DNA of 11,703 nucleotides, taken from the NCBI GenBank assembly GCA_039683575.1, contig JBDKRC010000015.1:1-11703 (forward strand), written 5' to 3'. The stretch is from Armatimonadia bacterium (lineage in GTDB: Bacteria; Armatimonadota; Zipacnadia; Zipacnadales; UBA11051). Under the pieces are notes generated by a model, which was given only the letters and a program-made list of their open reading frames with translations, had not been told where the DNA came from and searched no databases. Made by a program: the position numbers and the translations under genes. Every line of letters starts with the position of its first letter. Positions within the stretch are counted from its first letter, which is position 1. This document shows, one piece after another, positions 1 to 11,493 of this stretch.

Positions 1-268
1 CATCTGCCTGAAGGACCAGGACCCCCGCGAGGTCAGCAGTCCTCCCAGCGGCCTCTTTGAGCTACAGGACGCAGAAACCGGCCAGCGCCGCCTGATCAAC
101 CTGACACCCCGCCTCGCCGAGCAAATGCGGTTCAACGCCATGCAGCGCAACGCACAGCTAAAACAGGAACTGGCGCGCCACAAGGCGGACCTGGTCGAAC
201 TAGAGGCAGGCCAATCTCCGGCGGAACCGTTAGCAGCCTTCTTCCAGAAACGGTCGCGCCGCCGATGA
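1..268 (+). CDS. DUF58 domain protein (MoxR-associated), 3' partial
   Basis: Frame starting at base 2 reads ICLKDQDPREVSSPPSGLFELQDAETGQRRLINL...ELARHKADLVELEAGQSPAEPLAAFFQKRSRRR, TGA at 266-268. The DPRE..P..G...L.DAETG motif and the basic L..FF..R C-terminus are typical of DUF58 proteins. It lies directly upstream of the bat genes. Not in the ORF track because the start is outside the window. Confidence 0.9.
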   Translation, partial: ICLKDQDPREVSSPPSGLFELQDAETGQRRLINLTPRLAEQMRFNAMQRNAQLKQELARHKADLVELEAGQSPAEPLAAFFQKRSRRR

Positions 269-1431
269 GTACCCTCGCGTATCGCTCAACCTCAAGGTCG
301 CGTAGTGCGGGCGTCTCGCCCGCTGCCGTCCCTGGGTGCGCGGGGTCCCAACCCGCTGACGTTCGCACGTTCGCCATAGGTGCCGAAAAATGGGGACTGA
401 CCCCATCTTCGCAACCTTCCCGAACGCCTTCCGCCAAGCGCCATGCGAAAATGGGGTCTGTCCCCGTTTTCCTCGCCCTCCTGCTGCTGACGAGCCACGC
501 CTTCGCCGCCGCCACCATCAACTCGGCCATAGACAAGCCGCAGGTCACGGTCGGCGAGCCCTTCACCTACACCGTCACCCTGGTGCTCCCCCGTGGTGCC
601 ACAGCCAAGCTGCCCGGCGAGACCGTGAAGCTCAAGCTCCTCGAAGTCCGCGACTACAAGCCGCAGCAGGCCCCACAGGCCGACGGCTCGGTGCAACATA
701 CCCTTCAGTACACGCTCGTCAGCTTCGACACAGGCACCCAGGGCGTCAAAGACTTCAAAGTACCCGTGCGCATGGCCGACGGCACTTCCGAAACGTGGCT
801 GGCCCCGCCGGTCGAGATCAAAGTCGCGAGCGTCCTGCCCCCACAGGGCAAAGTCGAGCCCAAGGGCTTCTACGGCCCGATAACGCTCAAAGCCTGGTGG
901 GCAGACTGGCTGCTGCCGGTACTGATCGCACTGGCAATCCTCGCTGTGGCTGCCATGGTAATCTGGCGCCTCCGCAAGCGCCGCCCGGCGGCCACCGTAG
1001 ACGCTGCGCCTGAAGTCATCCTCGCCCCTGACCAGGCCGCTCTGCGCGCTTTGGAGCGGCTCCGCGAAGACGATCCCATCGCGGCGGGTGACTTCCTGGG
1101 CTTCTACCTGCGCCTCGATGAGACCCTCCGCGCCTGGCTGCAGGCCCGCTTTGACGTTCCGGCGATGGAACGCACCACGATGGGCATCATGTACCTGCTC
1201 CGTGTCCGCCGCGACACCGACGAATGGCGCGCGGAGTATCTCGACCTACTCAAGGCCGCCAATCGCGTCAAGTACGCCAAGCTCCTGCCAACCGACGGCG
1301 AGGCCCATGACCACCTTGACCAGGCCCAGGCAGTAATCGAGCAAGCGGTCGCAATTGCCACGATCCCGCCCGCTGTTCCCGGGAGCGCGGGCATCCCTGC
1401 CCGCTCGGATGACCGGGGTGAGGCCAAATGA
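265..1431 (+). CDS. BatD-like/DUF4381-type membrane-anchored protein of Bat operons (signal peptide, Ig-like domain, TM helix, helical cytoplasmic domain)
   Basis: Signal-like segment FLALLLLTSHAFA, BatD-like beta domain (IDKPQVTVGEPFTYTVTL...YTLVSFDTG), TM WLLPVLIALAILAVAAMVIW followed by RLRKRR, and C-terminal FY..L...LR.WL..RF...AME.TT and A..VKYAK motifs. ATGA overlaps with the DUF58 stop (265-268) and the batA start (1428-1431). An alternative start is ATG 451. Confidence 0.85.
   Translation: MSTLAYRSTSRSRSAGVSPAAVPGCAGSQPADVRTFAIGAEKWGLTPSSQPSRTPSAKRHAKMGSVPVFLALLLLTSHAFAAATINSAIDKPQVTVGEPFTYTVTLVLPRGATAKLPGETVKLKLLEVRDYKPQQAPQADGSVQHTLQYTLVSFDTGTQGVKDFKVPVRMADGTSETWLAPPVEIKVASVLPPQGKVEPKGFYGPITLKAWWADWLLPVLIALAILAVAAMVIWRLRKRRPAATVDAAPEVILAPDQAALRALERLREDDPIAAGDFLGFYLRLDETLRAWLQARFDVPAMERTTMGIMYLLRVRRDTDEWRAEYLDLLKAANRVKYAKLLPTDGEAHDHLDQAQAVIEQAVAIATIPPAVPGSAGIPARSDDRGEAK
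302..356 (+). repeat. Two tandem REP-like hairpins inside the 5' part of the 265-1431 ORF
   Basis: GTAG-T-GCGGGCG-TCT-CGCCCGC (302-323, perfect 7-bp stem), then a degenerate copy GCGGGGT-CCC-AACCCGC (340-356) 33 nt downstream with the same 7-3-7 geometry. Confidence 0.75.
385..471. repeat. REPIN/MITE-like inverted doublet of GGGG(A/T)CTG(A/T)CCCC palindromes
   Basis: 385-413 GAAAAATGGGGACTGACCCCATCTTCGCA nearly matches the reverse complement of 444-471 (GAAAACGGGGACAGACCCCATTTTCGCA). Each arm is itself a hairpin. The spacer is 30 nt and the total length is 87 nt (29 codons). Confidence 0.8.
1367..1404 (+). repeat. REP-like hairpin inside the 3' end of the 265-1431 ORF
   Basis: GGAG-C-GCGGGCA-TCCC-TGCCCGC (1382-1404). 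1367-1391 aligns to 317-344 at 22/25 with one 3-nt gap. Confidence 0.75.
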
Positions 1432-2435
1432 CCTTCGCCAACCCCTACGCTTTCCTGTTGCTCATACTCCTGCTGCCGATGATCTGGTGGCTCGTACGCA
1501 ACTCCCGCGAAGCCACCGCCGTCGCCGGCTACCCTGACCTGCGCCTGCTCGGCCCGCGCCGCGCCAATCTGCGCCTCTTCCTGGCGCGCTACTGGCCGTG
1601 GCTGCGCCTGCCTGCCCTGGTCCTGCTCATCGTGGCCCTCGCCCGCCCGCAGGTCTCGGCCGGGGTCAAGGAGACCAGTGGGTCCGGCATAGACATCATG
1701 CTGGCACTGGATATCTCGGGCAGTATGCAGGCCGAGGACTTCAAGCCCAAGAACCGCTTCACGGTGGCCCGCGAGGTCCTGCGGGAGTTCATCAGCCAGG
1801 CCGGAGCCAACCGCCTCGGCCTCGTGGTCTTCGCGGGTCAGGCCTTCACGCAAAGCCCCCTCGCCGCTGACCACACTATCGTGTCCCAGCTTCTGGAGAG
1901 CGTCGAGATGGGGATGCTGCAAGATGGCACGGCCATCGGCATGGCCATCGCCACTGCTTCCAGCCGGCTGCAGGCCTCCAAGGCCCGCAGCAAGGTCATC
2001 ATCCTGCTGACTGACGGGGTGAACAACCGGGGAGAGATTGACCCTCCAACCGCCGCGGAAGCCGCTGCGGCCATGGGGATCAAGATCTATGCCATCGGGG
2101 TAGGCAAGCAGGGCGGGGCGCCGATCCCCATCCCCGACCCGATGTTCGGCAAGCGTTACCTGCGCGACGCCGCGGGCAATCTGGTCATGACCAAGCTCGA
2201 CGAGGACATGCTCAAGAAGATCGCCTCGCTCACCGGCGGGCAGTACTTCCGTGCCACCGACGCGACGACCCTTCGGCAGATATATACCCACATCGACAAG
2301 ATGGAGAAGTCCGAATTCACGGCCAAACGGGAGCAGAAGTTCAACGAGCTCTTCCCCCGCTATCTGTGGCCCGGCCTGATCATTCTGATGGTACAATTCC
2401 TTCTAGGGGTAACCTGGCTGCGCAGAGCCCCGTAG
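1428..2435 (+). CDS. batA: BatA, VWA domain membrane protein
   Basis: N-terminal FANP..LLL BatA segment, ALARPQ, MIDAS DISGS, then FAG, GTAIG, LLTDG, GG.YFRA and a C-terminal TM helix. SD-like GGTGAGG at 1417-1423. Confidence 0.95.
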   Translation: MTFANPYAFLLLILLLPMIWWLVRNSREATAVAGYPDLRLLGPRRANLRLFLARYWPWLRLPALVLLIVALARPQVSAGVKETSGSGIDIMLALDISGSMQAEDFKPKNRFTVAREVLREFISQAGANRLGLVVFAGQAFTQSPLAADHTIVSQLLESVEMGMLQDGTAIGMAIATASSRLQASKARSKVIILLTDGVNNRGEIDPPTAAEAAAAMGIKIYAIGVGKQGGAPIPIPDPMFGKRYLRDAAGNLVMTKLDEDMLKKIASLTGGQYFRATDATTLRQIYTHIDKMEKSEFTAKREQKFNELFPRYLWPGLIILMVQFLLGVTWLRRAP

Positions 2436-2498: not shown

Positions 2499-3524
2499 AT
2501 GACTAGTTACTTCCGTTGGAACAATCCTGAACTCCTGATCTGGCTCTGGCTGGCGCCTGTGGTGCTGCTTCTTGGCTGGAGGGCCATCCGCCTGCGCATC
2601 GCCGCCGCCCGCCGGTTCTGTCCGGAACTCGGTGACGAGCGGTTGTCTTTGCGCCCACTATGGGAGCGTCTCTACATCAAGACCATCGTGATCGCACTGG
2701 CCCTGCTGCTGCTGGTCATTGCTCTAGCCCGTCCGCAGGTGGGTCTGCATCGCGAGCGCGCCCAGCGCAAGGGCGCGGACATCATCATCGTGGTGGACAC
2801 CAGCCTGAGCATGCAGGCCCAGGACATGCAGCCCAACCGCCTCGAGGCCGCCAAGCTGGCCGCCGCCAACCTTGTAAACCGCCTGCCTAATGACCGCTTC
2901 GGGATCGTGGTCTTCTCGGGCGACGCGCACCTCTACTGCCCGATCACGGTTGATCACGACGCAGTTCAGATGTTCATCGACTCTCTGACGACGCAATCTT
3001 CGCCCCAGCCCGGCACTGCACTATCGGAAGCCATGAAGGCTGCAGGCTCGGCCCTTGCCAACAGTGAAAGCAAGCACCGTGCCATCGTTCTGCTGAGCGA
3101 TGGCGAGGACCATGTTTCCGACACCCTTGAGGTGGCTGGGAAGGTTGTGCGCGAGACTGCCGCGCGGGTGGAGGTACTGGGCTTCGGAAGCCTCGAAGGC
3201 GAGCCGATCCCGGTGATAGACGAGGGCGGCAACGTCCAGGGCTTCAAGCAGGACGAGAAAGGCCAGCAGGTGCTCTCCAAGCTGGGTGAGGACGAACTGC
3301 GAAAGCTGGCCACCATCGGCAAGGGTATGTACTACCGGGCCATGGACCGCGGCGCGGCCGACCAGTTGGCCTCGCGCCTCGAAGCCATGGAGGGTTCGCA
3401 GGTGGGGACGATGCTCTACACGGACTATGGCGAGAGGTTCCAGTGGCCGCTGACCATCGCGCTCGTGCTGCTGGCGCTGGAGTGGCTGCTGCCGGAGCGT
3501 GGAAGGAGCCGGAAGAATGCGTAG
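2499..3524 (+). CDS. batB: BatB, VWA domain membrane protein
   Basis: ALARPQ, MIDAS DTSLS, P.RLEAAK, DRFGIVVFSG, PIT.DH, GTAL, LLSDGEDH, G..IP, and a C-terminal ERFQWPL plus TM. Second VWA gene after batA. Confidence 0.93.
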   Translation: MTSYFRWNNPELLIWLWLAPVVLLLGWRAIRLRIAAARRFCPELGDERLSLRPLWERLYIKTIVIALALLLLVIALARPQVGLHRERAQRKGADIIIVVDTSLSMQAQDMQPNRLEAAKLAAANLVNRLPNDRFGIVVFSGDAHLYCPITVDHDAVQMFIDSLTTQSSPQPGTALSEAMKAAGSALANSESKHRAIVLLSDGEDHVSDTLEVAGKVVRETAARVEVLGFGSLEGEPIPVIDEGGNVQGFKQDEKGQQVLSKLGEDELRKLATIGKGMYYRAMDRGAADQLASRLEAMEGSQVGTMLYTDYGERFQWPLTIALVLLALEWLLPERGRSRKNA

Positions 3525-4194: not shown

Positions 4195-5979
4195 ATGCAG
4201 ACACGCCACTTTCTCCAGATCGCGACAATGACCCTGGTTTGCCTGCTGGGGGCCGCCATGGCGGCCTCCGCGCAGGTGAGCGTCAGCGCGAGTGTCAGTC
4301 AGGACACAATCGGCCGCGGGGACATGCTCGAACTGACGGTGCGCATCAGCGGCGCCCGTGTCGGCGATGACAACGCGCCGGCCGTGCCCAACATGCAGGG
4401 CTTCGAGGTTGTCTCAACCTCTACCAGCCAATCCGTCTCGATCATCAATGGACAGGTAGCCAGCCAGAGCAGCTTCATCTACATGCTGATGCCCAAGCGG
4501 TCCGGCAAGCTGCAGATCCCCCCCATCGCCGTGACCGTGCGAGGCAGACGCTATGCAACCCAGCCGATCTCGGTAACCGTAACGGGCTCCGGATCGAGCA
4601 CCCGCAACCAGCCACTCCTGCCCCAGTCTGCTCAGAACCCCTTCGCCCCCGGCCCGCTGAGCCAGGCAGACGCCGGTAAGGCGGTCATCGTCCGGCAGTC
4701 GGTTGACCACAAGACCGCGTACGTCGGCCAACAGATCACGTACACTTTCTCCTTCATGCAGTCCGAACAGCTTTACAGCGAGGTTGAGTACGCCCAGGCA
4801 AGCACGTCCGGGTTTGTGGTCGAGGACCTGCCCAACCCACCGCAGTCGATGCAGACCGTCAACAACCGCCCCTACAACGTCCAGCGGCGCATGAAAGCCC
4901 TCTTCCCCACCGCGCCCGGCAAGTACACCATTGGCAAGGCCTCCGTCACCGTGACCACAGACCCTCTGATCGGCGCGGAGGAACTGGTGGCCGATCCGAT
5001 CACCATAACGGTGCTGCCCCTGCCCGCCGCAAACCGGCCCGCTGACTTCACGGGAGCCGTGGGCTCGTTCCAGGCGTTGGTGAGCGTCGACGGCGGGGTC
5101 GTTAGAGCCGGCGAAACACTCAACTGCCGCGTCGAGATACGCGGCACCGGCAACATCAAGTCACTCGGTGCCCCGCAATTGAACGCTCCGGCCTCGGTAC
5201 GGGTATACAAGGCCGGGGAGAAGCGCAACGCGGTTCCCGGCGGCGTGGGCACGTCAAGCAGCACCCTCGGCGGCGTGGCCACCTTCACCTACCTCCTGCT
5301 TCCTCGCGAGGCCGGCTCCTTGACGATCCCCTCGGTGCGCTACCCGTACTTCGACCCAGAGCAGGGCGTGTACCGCTACGCCGAGAGCAAGCCCCTGGCC
5401 ATCACGGTCACTCCTGGCACGGGCGGAACGACGACAGCGCCAGTTCTGCCCACTGATGACCTGCGGCCTGTGAAAGCCAATCCCGGTCACCCGACGCCTA
5501 CGCCTGTTACCCGCAGGCTGTGGTTCTGGCTTCTGCAGGCCATTCCGCTGGCCCTGGTGCTGGTGGCCGGCTGGCGCCGTTGGGAAGAGCATCGCGTCAT
5601 AGTAGCGCCCGATCTCGCACGGTCCGGAAGTGCGCTCGGGTTGGCGCGGCGGCGGTTTGACCTGGCCACCAGATCACTCGACACCGGTGGCACCGATGCC
5701 CTGTATTCCGAGGTAAATGCCGCCCTCGCCGACTACATAGCCGACCGCACTGGTGCGCCTCCGGCTGGGCTCACCGCAGACACAGCAAAGGAGTTGCTGC
5801 TCCAGCACGGTGCGGACCCGGCCCTCGCAGATAAGGCTTACGGGTTACTGAGCCGCTCGGCGGCAGGACGCTTCGCGCCCGGCGGAGCGGAAGCGGGGAA
5901 TGCGCTGGCGCTGGTCCGGGAAGCCCGGGAACTGGTCGATGCGCTGCAAAGGCAGGTGAGACCGCGTGACGAAGAGTAG
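4195..5979 (+). CDS. batD: BatD family protein
   Basis: Signal peptide ending ASA-Q, repeated Ig-like units (STSQSVSIING; Y.L.P...G.L.IP; AYVGQQI; FTGAVGSF; GTGNI; F.YLLLP...G.L.IP; YFDP..G.Y), TM WFWLLQAIPLALVLVAGW and a C-terminal RFAP motif. Confidence 0.93.
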   Translation: MQTRHFLQIATMTLVCLLGAAMAASAQVSVSASVSQDTIGRGDMLELTVRISGARVGDDNAPAVPNMQGFEVVSTSTSQSVSIINGQVASQSSFIYMLMPKRSGKLQIPPIAVTVRGRRYATQPISVTVTGSGSSTRNQPLLPQSAQNPFAPGPLSQADAGKAVIVRQSVDHKTAYVGQQITYTFSFMQSEQLYSEVEYAQASTSGFVVEDLPNPPQSMQTVNNRPYNVQRRMKALFPTAPGKYTIGKASVTVTTDPLIGAEELVADPITITVLPLPAANRPADFTGAVGSFQALVSVDGGVVRAGETLNCRVEIRGTGNIKSLGAPQLNAPASVRVYKAGEKRNAVPGGVGTSSSTLGGVATFTYLLLPREAGSLTIPSVRYPYFDPEQGVYRYAESKPLAITVTPGTGGTTTAPVLPTDDLRPVKANPGHPTPTPVTRRLWFWLLQAIPLALVLVAGWRRWEEHRVIVAPDLARSGSALGLARRRFDLATRSLDTGGTDALYSEVNAALADYIADRTGAPPAGLTADTAKELLLQHGADPALADKAYGLLSRSAAGRFAPGGAEAGNALALVREARELVDALQRQVRPRDEE

Positions 5980-6760
5980 AATTGCGGTCGCCCTGGCCGC
6001 CATCACCCTGGTAGGGGCTGTGCTACTACCTGGCCTGTGCTTCAGTCAGACCCCGTTCGCGAATGGCAATACGTACTTCCAGCGCGGAGAGTACCCCCAG
6101 GCGCAGCAACAGTACCTGGCCCAGCTTCAGCGCGGGCCGGTGACAGCGCCGCTCCTGTACAACCTCGGCAACACCTGCCTCCGCCTGCAGCAACTCGGCT
6201 GGGCGATTCTGTACTATGAGCGGGCGCTGCTCGCCACGCCGCGGGATGCCGACCTGCGGGCGAATCTGGCCCTGGCCATCGCCAGCCGCCAGGCTCCGCC
6301 AAGCACTGAGGCACCTGGATGGACGCAGGTAGTCCTGCGCGGCATCCTCGACCGCTTCTCGCTCAATGAGCTGGCCGGCGCCGCCTCGCTGATGTACTTC
6401 GCGGCGTGCGCCATGCTGCTATGGCGACTGCGCAGCCGCAATTTCCGGCGGCGCTACATGTGGGTATTGGGAATTGTCAGTCTGCTGGCGGTACTGCTGA
6501 TCTTCCTCGGAGCCACGAAAGCCCACCTCGACCACAATCCCCGTCGGGCGGTCGTGGTAACAAGCGGCAACCTCATGAGCGGGCCGGGCGACAGTTTTCA
6601 GGCCGTCCGAAAGGTATACGAGGGGGAGATGGCGCAGATAACGGGGCATCAGGGAGTGTGGCGTGAAGTGCGGCTCGAGACGGGGACCGTGGGGTGGCTG
6701 TCACAGGGGGCTGTCGAGACGGTGGTCGCGCCTCAAGCCGGCAGAGAGGCCGGGCATTAG
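5966..6760 (+). CDS. batE: BatE-like TPR + TM + SH3b protein
   Basis: GTG start overlapping the batD end with AGGTGAG upstream. F..GN.YF..GEY, YNLGN...LG.AILYYERAL...PRD.DLRANL, two TM helices, and C-terminal SGP...YEG...W.EVRL..G.VGWL (SH3b-like). Confidence 0.88.
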   Translation: MTKSRIAVALAAITLVGAVLLPGLCFSQTPFANGNTYFQRGEYPQAQQQYLAQLQRGPVTAPLLYNLGNTCLRLQQLGWAILYYERALLATPRDADLRANLALAIASRQAPPSTEAPGWTQVVLRGILDRFSLNELAGAASLMYFAACAMLLWRLRSRNFRRRYMWVLGIVSLLAVLLIFLGATKAHLDHNPRRAVVVTSGNLMSGPGDSFQAVRKVYEGEMAQITGHQGVWREVRLETGTVGWLSQGAVETVVAPQAGREAGH

Positions 6761-6844
6761 CCGGTCCAGGACTACCGCAACGTAATGCGTCGTTGGGGCG
6801 GGCGGCCCGTGAGACCCTTCGTGGCCTCGGCCCCACCTCACGGC

Positions 6845-6850
6845 GGGAGG
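6845..6850 (+). promoter_or_regulatory. Shine-Dalgarno sequence for the TTG start at 6858
   Basis: GGGAGG, 7 nt upstream of TTG. Confidence 0.7.
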
Positions 6851-6857
6851 GCCCTCG

Positions 6858-9125
6858 TTGACTGGCGAACGGCTTCGGCCATACTACTTTATTGCTGCCG
6901 GTGTAATCCTCCAGGGCCTATCGCCCGTCCTGACCAAGCTCCTGCTGAACGCCTCCCTCGCACCTGCCACCATCGTCGCAGTACGCTACCTGATCGCCGT
7001 GTTGGTGCTGCTGCCGTTTGGCTGGCGCCACCGCAATCCCACTGAGCATCTGCCGCCGCGACAGCGTGACTGGGTGGCCCTCTTCCTCGTCGGCGCCCTC
7101 GGCTCCGGCATCGCTTCGCTGCTCTTCGCGCAGGCCATCTTCCTCACCTCGGCTGGCGTAGCAACCGCCCTATCCAAGACCGCCCCCATCTTCGTGGCCT
7201 TCTTCGCCTACTTCACGCTCCGCGAGCGTGTCACCGCTTCACGCCTGGCCCTCGTGGGGCTGATGGTGGCCGCGGATGTGCTTATCGGTGCCGGTGAGAT
7301 GAGCGTGGGGCCCAGGGCCATGTCTCTACGCCTTACGGGCGACGGCCTCGCGCTTGGCGCGGGGATGCTGAGGGCCTTTGCGGAGATACTGAGCAAGGCT
7401 TCGCTGCGACGCTTCTACCCGTCCACGGTCGCAATGTGGCGGTTTGGCGTCGGCTTCCTGGTCACGGGCGTGATTGCACTCGGCGGCAAAGATCTACATG
7501 CGGTACTGCGGCTCAGCCTGGAGAACTGGGGCATCATGCTCGCTCTCGGGCTGCTGTGCACAAGTCTTTCCATGTCGCTGTACTATCGTGGCCTGCGAGA
7601 CATTCCGGCGCATGTAGGGGTTACCCTGCGCCTTTTGAGCGCGGTGGTGACTGTCGGCGCCTCGTGGTTGTGGATTGGGGAGAAGCTCAATGGCCTGCAT
7701 CTGGCGGGCATCGCCGTGCTCATGGCGGGGGCGTACCTGATCGTGGTGCGCACCACCAGGCAGCCCGCGCTGAGCCCGGTGCTCGAGGCGGTACGGCCGC
7801 CGCAACCATGGTCTCCCACCCGCACCCTCAAAGGCCGTGTGGCTCTCATGGTGGCCCTGATGATCGCCTTTTCGGTCTCAGCGACCACCGTGCTATCAGT
7901 GCGCCATGCCACCCAGGTGCTGCGGCACCAGATCCAGAACAACGGCGCGATGTTGGCCAGCAACATTCTCCAGCTGCAGGCCTTGGGCGCTGACCAGTCC
8001 CTCTTCCGTCAGTATCTCCACCGGCTCATGAATCTGCGCATTACCACCAGTGGTGAGGCGCAGACGGAGGGCCCCGGGCAGCATCCCCTGGGCATTATGT
8101 ACCTCATCGTTCAGGGGAAGTACGACGAAGTCCAAGCGTCAGCCATCGACCCCGACTTCATTGTCACCGATCGCGACGGGAACGTGCTACCGCCTCGTGG
8201 TATGCCTGCGGCGAGACGCATTTTGGAGATGGAGCAAGATGGAGAACTGCGCCGCCACGACGTATATCCGCTGGTGGCACCCCTGATTGGCGAGGACGGG
8301 AAGATCGGGACTGTGCGCATGGGCAGCAAGCGCAGCGTTATCTGGCACGACGTCCGAGCCATCACGCTTAGGAACTTGAGCCTGGCGGTGCTGCTGATCA
8401 CGCTGGGGGTGTTCGTTTCCTACTACCTGACCGACTATCTGGCTCGACCGCTGGAGCGCCTGAGCAGCATGGTGCGCCGGATCTCGAACGGTGAGCTCAA
8501 CGTGCCGGTGGTGGCTCTCGGCGGGACGGAAATCGAGAGCCTTGGCGCCTCGGTGGCCCGGATGGCCGAGGAATTGCGTCAGGGCCAGATGCTGCGGCAG
8601 TCACTCTCGCGGTGCATCTGCCCGTCCGGAGACACCGATGAACCCCTGGGCGCGGTGTGCCTGCTGGCCCGGCTGGGCGGCAGTACCAGAAAGGCGCAGG
8701 TGACGCAGTTCGATGCGCTCCTCGAAGCCGTAGCGCGCAATGAGGGCAGCGTCGGGGGGTTCGCTCCGGGATATGTGCTGGCCACTTTCGGCGGCGCCGA
8801 GCCGGAGCAGGATGACGTGCTGCGCGCGGTGGTGGCAGCGTTGGAATGGCGGGCCGTGTGGCGGGATGAGCCAGACCGCGCCCAGCCGCCGGCGGCGCTG
8901 ATAGGGCTGCGCGAAGAACCGGTGGCCGGTGGCGTGCGCCTCGAGGAAATGGCCGCCCAACTGCTCGTCGCACCTGAGACGGATGGCATGCCGATATACC
9001 TGAGCGCCGACGCGGCCGCGGCGGTCGCGGTGCATCTGGATACCCAGTCGCTCGAGGGATCAACGCTGCGCCTGGTGACAGAGCCAGAGGGCGAACTGGC
9101 GGCCGAGGACCTCGGCGAAACCTAA
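6858..9125 (+). CDS. EamA/DMT transporter fused to an extracytoplasmic sensor, HAMP and a degenerate class III nucleotide cyclase domain
   Basis: aa ~8-297: ten hydrophobic helices in two EamA repeats (AP.FVA.FA..TLRER; GD.LAL; G...T.L...LYY.GL; L.AVVTV..SWL..GEKL...LAG). aa ~328-348 TM, ~350-505 soluble domain, ~506-528 TM. HAMP RPLERL...VRRI.NGEL.V......EI..L......M. C-terminal cyclase-like segments VLATFGG...DDVLRAVVAAL and IYLS. Single uninterrupted ORF. Confidence 0.85.
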   Translation: MTGERLRPYYFIAAGVILQGLSPVLTKLLLNASLAPATIVAVRYLIAVLVLLPFGWRHRNPTEHLPPRQRDWVALFLVGALGSGIASLLFAQAIFLTSAGVATALSKTAPIFVAFFAYFTLRERVTASRLALVGLMVAADVLIGAGEMSVGPRAMSLRLTGDGLALGAGMLRAFAEILSKASLRRFYPSTVAMWRFGVGFLVTGVIALGGKDLHAVLRLSLENWGIMLALGLLCTSLSMSLYYRGLRDIPAHVGVTLRLLSAVVTVGASWLWIGEKLNGLHLAGIAVLMAGAYLIVVRTTRQPALSPVLEAVRPPQPWSPTRTLKGRVALMVALMIAFSVSATTVLSVRHATQVLRHQIQNNGAMLASNILQLQALGADQSLFRQYLHRLMNLRITTSGEAQTEGPGQHPLGIMYLIVQGKYDEVQASAIDPDFIVTDRDGNVLPPRGMPAARRILEMEQDGELRRHDVYPLVAPLIGEDGKIGTVRMGSKRSVIWHDVRAITLRNLSLAVLLITLGVFVSYYLTDYLARPLERLSSMVRRISNGELNVPVVALGGTEIESLGASVARMAEELRQGQMLRQSLSRCICPSGDTDEPLGAVCLLARLGGSTRKAQVTQFDALLEAVARNEGSVGGFAPGYVLATFGGAEPEQDDVLRAVVAALEWRAVWRDEPDRAQPPAALIGLREEPVAGGVRLEEMAAQLLVAPETDGMPIYLSADAAAAVAVHLDTQSLEGSTLRLVTEPEGELAAEDLGET

Positions 9126-9140
9126 GGCATCCCGGCAACG

Positions 9141-9159
9141 GCAGGCGCAGGCCGCCTGC
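9141..9159. other. GC-rich intergenic stem-loop without a U-tract
   Basis: GCAGGCG-CAGGC-CGCCTGC, 15 nt after the stop at 9125. Confidence 0.4.
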
Positions 9160-9195
9160 TCTGCCGCCAGGCTACAGTCTATAGGGGAGTGCGCC

Positions 9196-11493
9196 ATGAG
9201 CATTCGCTGCCAACTATTGGTCGTGAGCCTGCTGGTGGGGCTGGGAGTGGGGCACTGCGCCGACAGTGGCTGGCTCAACGTGCAGGACCTCGGGGCCTCC
9301 GGGTCGGAGTTCCAGACAAAGGCGAGCGTGACTGCCGGGTCAAGGGATGTAACGGTGGACGACGTTGGGGACTTCAGGGTGGGCCAGGGAGTCGCAATCG
9401 CCGGAGCCAACCCGCACTTCGAGCGACCGAGCTTGTGGGGGCCGGGAACCCAGTACATCGCCAAATCCGGTCTGCCCACCAAGTACATCGAGCTGCGCGG
9501 CTGGGACAACAACGGCAAAAGCTCCACGGTCTACATCATCGACTTCGACCGCAAAACCCCCACCTCATTTCGCTGGAGTGACGACATAGGCCGCACCTGG
9601 CAGCCAGCCCAGCAGGTGACTGGCGACTGGCAGACACTGCGGGGGACGCTGCAGGTCAAGGTTCTCCCCTACGAGTGGGAGAAGGGCTGGACGTTCACCT
9701 TCAGCGCCAAAGACTACCTCATCACCACCATTGAGAAGATTGAGGGCAAGACGTTGACCGTGCGCGATCCGGCGACCGCGACCACCGCCACCGCGCTGGT
9801 GAAGCACACCGATACGCAGGCCCTGCAGGCTGCCATTGACAGGGCGCTCAAGGAGAAGAGGAACCTCTTCCTCCCCGCCGGGCGCTATCGCCTCACGAGC
9901 GGGCTCCGCGTCGAGAACCCGACCGGCATCACCATCGAGGGCGCCAATGCCGGAACCACGATGCTCGATATCAGCGAGGGCACCGGATGCTGCGTGCAGT
10001 TCCGCGGCGGCACGGAGGGGACGGTACGCAACCTCAGCATGGTCGGCAGCGCGGGGTTTGCCGAGCGCGACCAGTGTGGGACCATCCGCATGCAGGGCAT
10101 CGGCTACATCTGGGGCCAGGACCTGCACACCACCTTCGCGACCGGTGTCGTCGGCACCGAACGCGTGCTGGTCGAAAATGTCCACGCAACCCGCATGTCG
10201 CTGGAGGCCTTCTGGTCCGGCGGCCCCGGCCGCGTGGGCACCAAAGAGCCGCCGCCACAATACACCCGCGCGCTCAACTACATCCGCTGCTCTGCGATCG
10301 ACTGCGGTCGCAACGGCTTCAACAACAACGATTACGCCGAGAACACCAGCATCCAGTACTGCCGCATCGTGGACGTGGGCGGTTGCGCGTGGGAGGGGGC
10401 GTCGCGGTTTGTGAAAATCGTGGGCAACTACGTCCGCAACGCCGGGACGGTCGCCGTCGGCAATATGAGCAACCGCTCCCCCGAGGTCGAGCAGCTTGGT
10501 TCGGCCCAGCACATAATCGAGGACAATGTCTTCGAAAGCAACGTCCCCTACGGAGGCTGCGCGATCCGTGCAGCGCACGGTGCGACGCAGGTAATCATCC
10601 GCAACAACCTCTTCATCAACTTCAATTCCTCGGCCATCGAGGTCTGGGGTCAGGGCGATGAGCGCCATCTCGGGAGCGGCATGGTCACTGTTGCCGGCAA
10701 TATCATGGATATGACATGCCTCGATCCCACCCCCAAGCAGCGCTGGGCCATCTACGCCAGCACTCCCGAGACCGTGATCGCGGATAACCAGATCTATGTG
10801 CGCGGGGCCGTGGACCCGCTGGTGACCGGGATCAAACTGATCGAGGGCCCGTCCGACCTGACAGTCCACGACAACCTGCTACGCAACCTGGGGCAGGGGC
10901 TGACGGTGGAGCGGGCAACGGCGCGAGTCGGCGAGGTGGTGGACGACCGCAGCTTCATCCAGAGCTCCGGCACGGTATCGCAGGAACGGCGTCAGTCACA
11001 CCGGTTCCAGGGCTGGAAGATCGTCTGGACAGCCGGAGGCAAGCCGCTCGGCGTGTCCACTATCGCCGAATTCGATCCGGAAAAGCGGGTATTTCGTCTG
11101 ACAGAGCCGAAGGCCATGAAGCCCGGCGATACCTTCGAAATCCAGCCTCCGTACGGCACGAACTGGAACCTCCATCACAATACCTTCGCCGGATGCCAGA
11201 TTCCGGTAGTGCTGGATGGCTACGGAAGCGCGACGTGCGCCTTCGACGACAACATACTGAGCCGTGAGGCAGCGACCGGCGTGAAGAGCGCAGTCGAGGT
11301 AAAGGGGCTGTTCGGCCTGAATGGCAACGTCTTCAGCGGCTTCGACGAGCCGGAAACGGTCGCAGTGATGCTCCATCCCGACCGGTTCGGCCAGCCCCTG
11401 CCGCTGCTAATGCGGGGGAACACGTACGAAGCCTGTACTGCTGCGGTGGGCGAGGCAACGCCGGGCCTGGCGAAAGCGGTAAGACAGCAGTAG
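9196..11493 (+). CDS. Secreted right-handed parallel beta-helix protein (pectate lyase 3/tailspike-like), probable polysaccharide-active protein
   Basis: SD GGGGAG 9184-9189, signal peptide, NVQDLGASG ... DTQALQAAID...LFLPAGRY...ITIEG cap motif, and many beta-helix rungs (IVGNYV, IIEDNVF, IIRNNLF, VAGNIM, IADNQI, VHDNLL, LHHNTF, LNGNVF). Confidence 0.88.
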   Translation: MSIRCQLLVVSLLVGLGVGHCADSGWLNVQDLGASGSEFQTKASVTAGSRDVTVDDVGDFRVGQGVAIAGANPHFERPSLWGPGTQYIAKSGLPTKYIELRGWDNNGKSSTVYIIDFDRKTPTSFRWSDDIGRTWQPAQQVTGDWQTLRGTLQVKVLPYEWEKGWTFTFSAKDYLITTIEKIEGKTLTVRDPATATTATALVKHTDTQALQAAIDRALKEKRNLFLPAGRYRLTSGLRVENPTGITIEGANAGTTMLDISEGTGCCVQFRGGTEGTVRNLSMVGSAGFAERDQCGTIRMQGIGYIWGQDLHTTFATGVVGTERVLVENVHATRMSLEAFWSGGPGRVGTKEPPPQYTRALNYIRCSAIDCGRNGFNNNDYAENTSIQYCRIVDVGGCAWEGASRFVKIVGNYVRNAGTVAVGNMSNRSPEVEQLGSAQHIIEDNVFESNVPYGGCAIRAAHGATQVIIRNNLFINFNSSAIEVWGQGDERHLGSGMVTVAGNIMDMTCLDPTPKQRWAIYASTPETVIADNQIYVRGAVDPLVTGIKLIEGPSDLTVHDNLLRNLGQGLTVERATARVGEVVDDRSFIQSSGTVSQERRQSHRFQGWKIVWTAGGKPLGVSTIAEFDPEKRVFRLTEPKAMKPGDTFEIQPPYGTNWNLHHNTFAGCQIPVVLDGYGSATCAFDDNILSREAATGVKSAVEVKGLFGLNGNVFSGFDEPETVAVMLHPDRFGQPLPLLMRGNTYEACTAAVGEATPGLAKAVRQQ

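Follow-up and report, generated by a model that had tools for sequence, protein, structure and literature searches.

Fusions of a transporter with a receptor are rare and offer a way to study the coupling of flux and signalling; among them CbrA and CrbS carry an SLC5 domain. The mycobacterial Rv3645-type enzymes are further examples of membrane-bound, HAMP-linked class III cyclases with an outside sensor; in class III cyclases, mammalian and bacterial, two Asp residues bind the metals, a Lys specifies the substrate, and an Asn and an Arg act on the transition state. TRAP and TTT systems are the known secondary transporters that depend on a solute-binding protein (SBP). One long-standing suggestion for the Bat operon is an export of reducing equivalents to the periplasm. 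The literature describes the eukaryotic GPR155 as a transporter plus a GPCR domain, has HptA signal through a Cache-like sensor (review), places the VWA domain of BB0173 on the periplasmic side, and states that the Bat operon has been without a defined function since its description in 1999 and that bat mutants of Leptospira biflexa had no phenotype (PMC3557215).

The gene analysed here lies in a window (the whole stretch of DNA under study) of 11,703 nt, where it is the last gene of a same-strand MoxR-DUF58-DUF4381-BatABCDE array. Its product is one 12-TM inner-membrane polypeptide that runs from a 10-TM carrier through to a class III cyclase homology domain. We could confirm the ORF and its domain layout; the membrane protein is genuine and conserved among uncultured Armatimonadota. 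The features of the locus are collected in Table 1.

Table 1. Features of the window (nucleotide positions) with the corresponding residues of the fusion protein and the basis of each assignment; L008 is a related locus.
Feature	Position	Strand	Residues, basis or remark
DUF58-like gene, 3' end, cut by contig start	2..268	+	matches C-terminus of the L008 DUF58 ORF
Membrane protein, no Pfam match here	265..1431	+	L008 homologue matches DUF4381
BatA (BatA N-terminal domain + VWA)	1428..2435	+	domain matches
BatB-like VWA protein	2499..3524	+	domain matches
BatC-like TPR protein with N-terminal hydrophobic segment	3499..4182	+	domain matches, segment scan
BatD	4195..5979	+	PF13584, E 5e-47
BatE-like TPR + TM + SH3 protein	5966..6760	+	adjoins fusion gene, 97-nt gap
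GGGAGG Shine-Dalgarno-like site	6845..6850	+	7 nt 5' of TTG start; read from sequence
Whole gene, DMT-sensor-HAMP-pseudocyclase protein	6858..9125	+	755 aa; stop codon 9123-9125; relatives and translation
DMT/EamA carrier, two EamA repeats, 10 TM helices	6882..7748	+	aa 9-297; Pfam, model, Foldseek
Cytoplasmic linker, variable	7749..7832	+	aa 298-325; low pLDDT; unbroken in 77 relatives
TM11	7833..7895	+	aa 326-346; hydropathy, model, K+R counts
PDC/Cache-like sensor domain, extracytoplasmic	7896..8357	+	aa 347-500; model, structure comparison
TM12	8358..8432	+	aa 501-525; hydropathy, model
HAMP domain	8436..8582	+	aa 527-575; Pfam E 6.8e-10; PDB HAMP matches by profile
Helical connector from HAMP to cyclase-like domain	8583..8651	+	aa 576-598; model helix 557-587
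Degenerate class III cyclase homology domain	8652..9083	+	aa 599-742; alignment, profile, fold
Acidic C-terminal tail	9084..9122	+	aa 743-755; alignment

The domain order given in an earlier note on this DNA (two EamA repeats, linker, TM helix, Cache/PAS-like region, TM helix, HAMP, cyclase-like domain) is borne out by Pfam, hydropathy and the AlphaFold2 model, and its coordinates were correct within a few codons. The TTG is the start codon of the ORF, and the translation contains no internal stop. A stop or frameshift in the linker, which the same note had suggested looking for, was not found: the linker is unbroken in 77 of 77 aligned relatives (34-90% identical), with a length of 22-54 residues. 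Contigs from two additional runs, both belonging to one study, also bridge it: a 2285-nt contig spans 6198-8482 without gaps, and a 2526-nt contig, which carries one in-frame insertion of 6 nt, spans 6447-8966. Nor are the two halves encoded as separate genes in close relatives, where the short high-identity matches lie on short contigs or are marked as partial, with the exception of P0233 (251 aa, on a 103-kb contig); a close stand-alone carrier was not found, as below the partial fragments the identity falls to ≤ 34%. Parts of the fusion gene are matched with 0-5 differences by contigs of two RNA libraries, which is not proof of transcription. The promoter and terminator scan of 6500-9400 yielded no terminator-like site and a sole promoter-like match, which overlaps the start codon and is uninformative.

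Ten helices are found within aa 2-300 by hydropathy and in the AlphaFold2 model; the model continues with 23 non-helical residues (aa 301-323), a helix that begins at 324, then an alpha/beta domain that ends near residue 491 and, from 492 to 543, one unbroken helix, with HAMP (PF00672) directly behind the TM helix. The mean pLDDT of the full-length model is 86.7 and its pTM 0.56, the inter-domain arrangement being uncertain. The predicted inner loops hold 17 Lys and Arg residues versus 3 on the outer loops and therefore aa 347-500 are placed outside; this agrees with the 12 TM helices and the outside region of about aa 350-505 that had been predicted.

The carrier part matches EamA (PF00892; E 5.9e-39, 133.9 bits with a cut-off of 28.2) in two stretches, of which aa 9-143 is the best, and reaches 69.6 bits on NCBIfam TIGR00950, whose cut-off is 230. 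Foldseek recovered the DMT fold of various structures: LicB (7paf), SLC35B1 (9i20), a triose-phosphate translocator (5y78) and 5i20, which we take to be YddG, with TM-scores relative to the target of up to 0.78-0.80 (7paf_A: 0.78, E 1.1e-6; 5y78_A: 0.77). The mean pairwise identity within the family is highest for this part (EamA 0.61, sensor 0.39, HAMP 0.35, cyclase-like domain 0.27, tail 0.21), and its invariant columns include K27, R43, K107, E123, R172, E176, K180, H252 and H281. The linker of the window protein has 6 Pro in 28 residues; the idea that the SH3 domain of BatE binds this stretch was dropped, since the linker is variable and the median Pro fraction in the family is 0.15.

The sensor domain, modelled in isolation, has a pLDDT of 87.3 and a pTM of 0.81. 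A Cache Pfam profile was not matched by the window protein; sCache_3_2 was matched by P0096 and P0102, two more distant relatives of the receptor half. A Foldseek search with the isolated model gave nothing at E ≤ 0.001 (best: WalK, E 1.9e-3). The top rows of VIA-align are almost all PDC/Cache sensors, at Z-scores of 6-8.4, a range which the tool calls a possibly common arrangement, and the first of them is LuxQ complexed with LuxP (2hj9_C; Z 8.4, rmsd 3.4, 134 residues). The agreement with the PDC fold is therefore no more than moderate. The sensor is also the most family-diverged domain of the window lineage relative to each domain's own average: it is 27% identical to the other relatives versus a family mean of 39%.

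By sequence, the receptor half finds stand-alone sCache_3_2-HAMP-cyclases of about 450-470 aa (Pfam: P0096, sCache_3_2 + HAMP + Guanylate_cyc; P0097 and P0103, HAMP + Guanylate_cyc). PF00211 had no match in the window protein even at E ≤ 1 (Pfam); the C-terminal ~160 aa can be aligned to the PF00211 domains of relatives of ~840 aa, and the relative at locus L015 scores 86.6 bits on this profile. A profile of all 77 aligned sequences matched 6fht at 5.6e-11 and Cya2 (2w01) at 1.8e-10, a profile of the 66 degenerate rows alone matched 2w01 at 4.4e-5, and Foldseek recovered the cyclase folds 3r5g_B, 2w01_C, 4wpa_A and 1wc1_A at E 1-3e-3. The cyclase-like output domain that had been proposed thus stands as far as homology and fold are concerned and falls as an enzyme, all five checked catalytic residues being lost: R, G and G replace Asp, Asp and Lys, and the segment with Asn and Arg is deleted. 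The complete set (D, D, K, N, R) is present in 9 of the 77 aligned sequences, which form one clade, and missing in 68, that of the window among them; the motif E-x-D-D-x-L-R-A and the pseudo-cyclase fold are kept in 77/77 rows. Judged by its sequence, the window protein cannot synthesise cAMP or cGMP through the known two-metal mechanism, because both metal-binding Asp, the Lys and the Asn/Arg segment are all gone. The tail is poorly conserved in sequence, yet acidic in most relatives; the idea that it forms a docking motif was set aside on account of this poor conservation.

In the phylum sample of Armatimonadota the fusion family is confined to the order of the window, where 19 of 27 genomes have it, as against none of the 273 genomes from outside the order. 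Every genome that allowed a copy count, 25 in all, has one copy: 20 positive genomes show a single match at E ≤ 1e-40 and 5 show a single match at E ≤ 1e-20. Literature searches for the EamA-sensor-HAMP-cyclase architecture retrieved no paper, in agreement with the earlier statement that no characterised protein of this kind is known; what emerges is a conserved, order-restricted family rather than an isolated case.

The full gene array, including MoxR and DUF58, is seen in L008; the window's own MoxR gene is not visible because the window begins inside the DUF58-like gene. Of the 41 relatives with assessable upstream DNA, 34 have a BatE-like gene as the immediate upstream neighbour, on the same strand; the gap measures 27-216 nt in 33 of these Bat-linked loci and 681 nt in L040. 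The Bat proteins of the window carry signal or anchor segments, which speaks for a periplasmic side. None of the 28 complete Bat-linked genes has the catalytic motifs, and the four motif-bearing loci with an apparently intact cyclase (L014, L015, L017 and L038) all carry the fusion without Bat. The Bat link is frequent and not obligatory, because degenerate fusions are also found at loci that are unlinked to Bat (L012, L013, L037) or in genomes in which BatD was not found (G304, G305, G113, G271). Bat without the fusion occurs as well, in G041, G301-G303 and 31 sampled BatD-bearing genomes outside the order.

Directly after the fusion gene, 34 of the 37 relatives with downstream DNA, covering all three gene contexts, have an orphan gene for an FbpA/AfuA/HptA-like SBP, an adjacency that persists over the three upstream contexts at 37-45% protein identity. 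In L008 the fusion ORF ends at 10265 and the SBP ORF starts at 10272, a gap of 6 nt, and no ABC permease follows the SBP gene. The SBP occurs in 19/19 fusion-bearing genomes of the phylum sample versus 0/273 outside the order, and its profile matches the HptA entries 6lkg and 6lki; solved relatives of the SBP point to Fe(III) with anions, sugar phosphates, phosphonates and pyridoxal phosphate as candidate ligands. The gene is not adjacent to the fusion in the window or in its nearest kin (L001-L003, G235, G250, G227), and the orthologue of the window genome is a lipoprotein gene on another contig (G000:C264; L052:7330-8352). Since the SBP gene is non-adjacent and the sensor unusually diverged, the coupling to the SBP may be weakened or lost in the window lineage. 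The correlation of SBP distances with those of the domains ('mirror tree') was mixed, with Pearson and partial correlations favouring the sensor and Spearman favouring EamA, and carries little weight because the phylogeny is shared; the complex prediction for window aa 1-530 and the genome's own mature SBP scored 0.00 against a mark of 0.32, which is no evidence either way.

As no enzyme remains, the carrier would be the only output left in the polypeptide, and the EamA part is the most conserved (61% versus 27-39% for the other domains); our interpretation is accordingly that of a signal-regulated carrier and not of a maker of cAMP. In full, the reading that we put forward, with confidence and doubt about evenly balanced, is that of a DMT carrier serving Bat, whose activity is set by a cue at the PDC domain, received directly or via the SBP and passed on by HAMP and the pseudo-cyclase domain. 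The ancestor would have been an adenylate cyclase receptor under ligand control that was joined to a carrier; one clade still looks catalytically intact, and the Bat-linked lineage would have lost the enzymatic output and kept the sensor-HAMP-pseudocyclase stalk. The PDC domain may sense a periplasmic cue, either on its own or by way of the SBP in the manner of LuxP-LuxQ or HptA-HptS; the signal would then pass via TM12 and HAMP to the pseudo-cyclase domain, presumably dimeric by analogy to class III cyclases, and change the activity of the carrier. The carrier, which might be fed by the binding protein, would transport a small solute that the periplasm-facing Bat complex uses or that is made for it. 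A bolder form of this model, which we regard as doubtful, holds that the fusion is an SBP-gated or SBP-fed DMT carrier, a counterpart of TRAP and TTT, in which the stalk couples SBP occupancy to the carrier, that it moves a small molecule required by Bat, and that the intact clade is the first SBP-dependent adenylate cyclase. If true, an SBP-gated carrier would give a first handle on what Bat operons do, and an SBP that talks to the sensor of the intact clade would extend SBP-dependent signalling to adenylate cyclases, which the abstract of a review on SBPs does not list among SBP-dependent receptors (PMC8050422).

Several other explanations have to be weighed; the two readings offered in the earlier note, a gated exporter and a transceptor, are still the foremost candidates. 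The protein could be a transceptor, in which the DMT part, the PDC domain or both sense a solute and the pseudo-cyclase domain signals to a cytoplasmic partner, e.g. the MoxR ATPase or DUF58; in this way the periplasmic Bat proteins would be connected with the cytoplasmic ATPase. This reading fits the presence of cytoplasmic MoxR and DUF58 in one operon with periplasm-facing BatA-E, the fact that, among the operon members here, the fusion alone combines an outside sensor with a folded cytoplasmic domain, and the retention of fold and motif in every row. However, conservation is lowest in the cyclase-like domain and the tail, which is not what one would expect of a specific docking surface, and degenerate members also occur where BatD was not found, so that we consider this explanation rather unlikely. 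We also doubt that the Bat and SBP links merely reflect inherited gene order without shared function, the protein being an autonomous small-molecule receptor-carrier: the SBP stays beside the fusion across contexts at the protein identities given above, the same-strand gaps to batE and to the SBP gene are short, and no fusion-bearing genome of the sample lacks the SBP, although Bat without fusion, fusion without Bat and fusion without adjacent SBP all occur, and the genomes are not independent samples because all come from one order. A domain that is still an active nucleotide cyclase with non-canonical residues is very improbable: the retained fold and dimer-forming class are all that speaks for it, and against it stand the metal Asp pair turned into R and G, the Lys turned into G, the deleted Asn/Arg strand segment and the absence of a PF00211 match. 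An ORF produced by an artefactual fusion, or a functionless gene in decay, is hardly credible even for a window from a metagenome-assembled genome of 352 contigs, given the identical unbroken layout in all 77 relatives, the contigs of two runs across the linker, the many invariant carrier residues and the RNA-library contigs, with the reservation on transcription made above.

The signal-regulated carrier that we favour can be compared with known systems at several levels. The order TM-sensor-TM-HAMP-cyclase is shared with stand-alone HAMP-linked class III adenylate cyclases, to which the window protein adds the 10-TM EamA carrier in front while having lost the catalytic residues. The apparently intact-cyclase clade and the larger pseudo-enzyme clade joined to the Bat operon therein form a natural before-and-after pair. 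Stand-alone EamA/DME-family DMT carriers are likewise built of two EamA repeats with 10 TM helices in the DMT fold; they are without a receptor module and at most 34% identical to the window protein. With LuxP-LuxQ and HptA-HptS, most fusion relatives have in common a presumably PDC/dCache-like outside domain and a neighbouring orphan SBP gene; the outputs of LuxPQ and HptSA are histidine kinases, whereas the fusion family has the cyclase of the intact clade or a pseudo-cyclase with a fused carrier, and the gene adjacency is absent in the window genome, where the SBP gene is unlinked. MoxR, DUF58, DUF4381, BatA, B, C, D and E follow one another as in Bat/MoxR-vWA operons; the available parts of the accounts of described Bat operons report no carrier-receptor gene, and, unlike the operon of the window, the 31 BatD-bearing genomes of the phylum sample outside the order have none. 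A carrier-receptor and an FbpA/HptA-like SBP attached to the Bat operon are concrete, expressible proteins for ligand screening. Finally, as in CbrA/CrbS and GPR155, one polypeptide unites an entire carrier domain with a receptor module; the window fusion differs from these in its carrier family, its receptor type and the lack of an enzymatic output, and it adds DMT as a new carrier family to the transporter-receptor fusions.

The earlier note had read a single polypeptide as an EamA (DMT) carrier joined by a linker to a receptor with a sensor, HAMP and a cyclase-like output, and this layout with its coordinates was borne out by Pfam, hydropathy and the AlphaFold2 model (see the table). Pfam matched EamA over two stretches (E 5.9e-39) and HAMP at aa 527-575 (E 6.8e-10), with Guanylate_cyc unmatched even at E ≤ 1; in NCBIfam the 2A78 carrier family remained sub-threshold (69.6 bits vs a cut-off of 230) and the HAMP region weakly matched sensor kinases. 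The full-length model, made from a 77-row alignment of the family (A1), had a mean pLDDT of 86.7 and a pTM of 0.56. In Foldseek its N-terminal part matched the DMT carriers LicB (7paf_A; E 1.1e-6, TM-score 0.78 on target), SLC35B1, the triose-phosphate translocator and 5i20. With the modelled helices taken as transmembrane, the predicted cytoplasmic loops carry 17 K+R and the outer loops 3, which places HAMP, the C-terminal domain and both ends of the carrier inside and aa 347-500 outside, much as the earlier note had expected (aa ~350-505).

Features of the fusion gene, its product and the neighbouring or related loci; identities are mean pairwise values within A1, and positions are in the window unless a protein (aa) or another locus is indicated
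Feature	Position	Strand	Identity	Remark
Fusion ORF	6858-9125	+		755 aa, TTG start, open throughout
GGGAGG site	7 nt before TTG of fusion ORF	+		
Ten helices	aa 2-300			hydropathy + AlphaFold2
Linker, low confidence	after the aa 2-300 helices		0.27	hydropathy + AlphaFold2
Long helix	from aa 324			hydropathy + AlphaFold2
Alpha/beta domain	up to about aa 491			hydropathy + AlphaFold2
Helix continuing into HAMP	aa 492-543			hydropathy + AlphaFold2
Beta-alpha domain	aa 600-740			hydropathy + AlphaFold2
EamA part			0.61	
Sensor			0.39	
HAMP			0.35	
Cyclase-like domain			0.27	
Tail			0.21	
Genes upstream of fusion				DUF58-like 3' end, membrane protein, BatA, second VWA protein, TPR protein, BatD, TPR-SH3 protein
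Membrane protein	265-1431	+		388 aa
BatE-like protein	5966-6760	+		
Downstream gene	9196-11493	+		765 aa
SBP gene of the window's genome	L052:7147-8355 = G000:C264, about 28147-29355			lipoprotein
SBP ORF of locus L008	L008:10272-11408			starts 6 nt past fusion ORF end (10265)
DUF6785/DUF6784 protein	L048:6341-8356			671 aa
Alpha-2-macroglobulin-like gene	L037:2860-7602	-		1580 aa

That the fusion is real, as the earlier note had held, is supported by its relatives. A word-indexed search recovered 84 proteins of 415-1322 aa (one identical, one 90% and the others 37-60% identical), nearly all of 720-860 aa with EamA, and most with HAMP. A1 contains the query and 76 of these; the eight omitted are the identical P0002, the short or marked-partial P0033, P0074, P0077, P0082 and P0085, and P0009 and P0014, whose contigs are barely longer than the gene. 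The linker (window 7749-7832) is variable, of 22-54 residues (median 28), and uninterrupted in all 77 rows. Separately encoded halves were not encountered: a search with aa 1-300 for shorter proteins gave high-identity matches on short contigs or marked partial, with a 251-aa protein encoded on a 103-kb contig (P0233) as the single exception, and beyond these only ordinary stand-alone EamA proteins at ≤ 34% identity. The carrier-receptor junction is also bridged by contigs from two DNA runs within a single study, which are not fully independent since one of them may be the source sample: a contig of 2285 nt aligns without gaps over 6198-8482 and has 23 substitutions, and one of 2526 nt, spanning 6447-8966, has 88 substitutions and, behind 7989, a single in-frame insertion of 6 nt. 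The insertion, in the contig of run X2, falls within the sensor domain (about aa 377), where the relatives' proteins are two residues longer than the window's, and looks like a strain variant of a sensor loop. Five parts of the gene were matched by contigs from two RNA libraries, which is not proof of transcription.

Identity within A1 is highest in the EamA part and, on this comparison, the carrier is the core of the protein. The window's sensor shares only 27% identity with the others; against the 90% relative P0003 it is 81% identical and the other domains 92-94%, so that by these alignments the sensor has drifted in the window's lineage. Modelled by itself from an alignment of 38 rows taken from the loci (A2), it gave a pLDDT of 87.3 and a pTM of 0.81. 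Foldseek returned no match to this model at E ≤ 0.001 (best WalK, 1.9e-3); in a second, independent structure search the top rows were almost only PDC/Cache-type sensor domains, led by LuxQ with LuxP (2hj9_C; Z 8.4, rmsd 3.4, 134 residues aligned) and including KinD (Z 7.9), CusS (7.9), WalK (7.8) and CitA (7.0). Because these Z values are middling, and values below 8 can, by the tool's own warning, reflect a common arrangement, we call the predicted outside domain PDC/Cache-like with moderate confidence. Searched exhaustively, aa 321-755 yielded 351 matches at E ≤ 0.001, including 16 at ≤ 1e-10; the 15 scanned with Pfam included three stand-alone HAMP-Guanylate_cyc proteins of ~450-470 aa, one of which (P0096) also has sCache_3_2, and one sCache_3_2-HAMP histidine kinase.

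In class III cyclases two Asp bind the metal ions, a Lys serves the substrate, and an Asn and an Arg act in the transition state. Of the 77 aligned proteins, nine with a length of about 840 aa contain PF00211, and aa ~599-742 of the window protein align with it; the five catalytic columns read D, D, K, N, R in the nine and R, G, G, gap, gap in the window protein. The set is absent from 68 of the 77 rows, P0046 and P0062 retaining the first Asp alone. Homology is nevertheless detectable: against solved structures the 77-row profile matched a phytochrome-cyclase fusion (6fht, 5.6e-11) and Cya2 (2w01, 1.8e-10), one made from just the 66 degenerate rows (A3) matched the same two (5.9e-5 and 4.4e-5), and Foldseek with the full model found CyaB (3r5g_B, E 1.2e-3), Cya2, Ma1120 (4wpa_A) and CyaC. 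The cyclase-like output of the earlier note thus holds for homology and fold; the catalytic residues are lost, and this cyclase homology domain has turned into a pseudo-enzyme. In unrooted trees from the columns of aa 1-590 (FastTree; IQ-TREE quick) the nine intact and the two half-degenerate sequences form one clade, and the degenerate P0034, P0060, P0080 and P0083, which are not Bat-linked, form another; the nesting of P0046 and P0062 shows at least one separate loss of catalysis.

The family was found at 43 loci of the genome collection, all in metagenome-assembled genomes titled Armatimonadota, Armatimonadia, Candidatus Zipacnadia, candidate division WS1 or uncultured bacterium. When 301 genomes were sampled evenly across the phylum, it occurred (E ≤ 1e-40) in 20, including the window's own with one copy: 19 of the 27 other genomes of the order vs 0/273 elsewhere. 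Full-text searches, mostly of open-access journals, returned no paper describing an EamA-receptor-HAMP-cyclase fusion.

The relatives share the upstream array of the MoxR-vWA (Bat) operon with unchanged order and strand (tblastn with the window's proteins), which at locus L008 begins with MoxR (AAA_3), DUF58 and a DUF4381 protein. Where the locus extends 650 nt or more upstream (41 loci), a BatE-like gene immediately precedes the fusion gene in 34 (gaps of 27-681 nt) and is absent there in seven, which include all the motif-keeping loci (L014, L015, L017 and L038). All 28 complete Bat-linked genes lack the catalytic motifs; a further six are truncated at a contig end. Three of the four intact-type genomes were searched, and those of L015, L017 and L038 have one family copy each and a Bat operon elsewhere without fusion. 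At L048, in a genome with an intact-cyclase fusion unlinked to Bat, a DUF6785/DUF6784 membrane protein follows batE and may be another membrane protein occupying the slot at the operon end. BatD occurred in 50 of the 301 sampled genomes: together with the fusion in 17 of the order, alone in one (G041), and without the fusion in 31 outside it; two genomes of the order (G113, G271) have the fusion only. The window's downstream gene, whose product combines a hydrophobic segment at the N-terminus with a right-handed beta-helix region, had no tblastn match in any of the 43 related loci, so that in the window the conserved array stops at the fusion gene. Upstream of the non-Bat family member at L037 lies a bacterial alpha-2-macroglobulin-like gene.

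The window's Bat proteins have N-terminal signal or anchor segments, and in Borrelia a BatA-like protein has its VWA domain on the periplasmic side (PMC5700661); therefore the outside domain of the fusion is in the compartment of the Bat proteins. In the BatE-like protein an N-terminal hydrophobic segment and TPR repeats are followed by a second hydrophobic segment (aa 165-183) and then an SH3 domain, which may therefore lie across the membrane from the TPR part. The 388-aa membrane protein has no Pfam match, its L008 homologue just reaching DUF4381; since some 60 N-terminal residues as called are unmatched in relatives, the true start may lie further downstream. According to PMC3557215, Bat was originally proposed to export reducing equivalents to the periplasm (Tang et al. 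1999, as cited there), Leptospira biflexa bat mutants had no phenotype, and a periplasmic signalling complex was floated as an idea; a carrier-receptor ending the operon fits either proposal.

An extracellular solute-binding protein (SBP) gene, first seen right after the fusion gene at L012 and L037, was matched by tblastn at 34 of the 37 loci with downstream DNA, in each case on the fusion gene's strand and downstream of it. It is FbpA/AfuA/HptA-like and spans the Bat-linked, intact-cyclase and other non-Bat contexts; at L008 it is followed by an MBL-fold gene, with no ABC permease or ATPase genes. An adjacent SBP is missing in the window and its nearest kin (L001-L003). The window genome's orthologue (44% identity, E 8.9e-94) lies on another contig, with a translated lipoprotein-type signal ending LLSGC and an MBL-fold neighbour as in relatives: the gene has moved in this genome and its nearest kin, and the neighbour was kept. 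In the phylum sample the SBP occurred in 22 of the 27 other genomes of the order and 0/273 elsewhere, and in all 19 fusion-bearing ones, adjacent by coordinates in 15, 35 kb off in G158 and unlinked in G235, G250 and G227 (the window's own and a sister genus). The sensor drift fits, but does not prove, a loosened tie to the SBP. SBP matches in NCBIfam were all far below the cut-offs; an alignment profile (A4) matched solved Fe(III)-type SBPs (8x1a, 1e-28; 4r72, 1.7e-28), the pyridoxal-phosphate binder 6wce, the phosphonate binder 4r6y, and 6lkg and 6lki. According to an SBP review the latter two are HptA, which partners the sensor kinase HptS; adenylate cyclases are absent from the list in the review's abstract.

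By its sequence features, the protein is a transporter-receptor fusion with a pseudo-enzyme output and a conserved Bat and SBP context, its function being putative. The earlier interpretation, a ligand-gated exporter or a transceptor coupling flux to signalling, is supported in part. A Cache-HAMP-cyclase receptor would have become fused to a DMT carrier and catalysis would have been lost in most lineages, leaving the stalk with the carrier or a partner protein as its only possible targets. The cue is probably periplasmic and might be relayed by the SBP, as happens in LuxPQ and HptSA.
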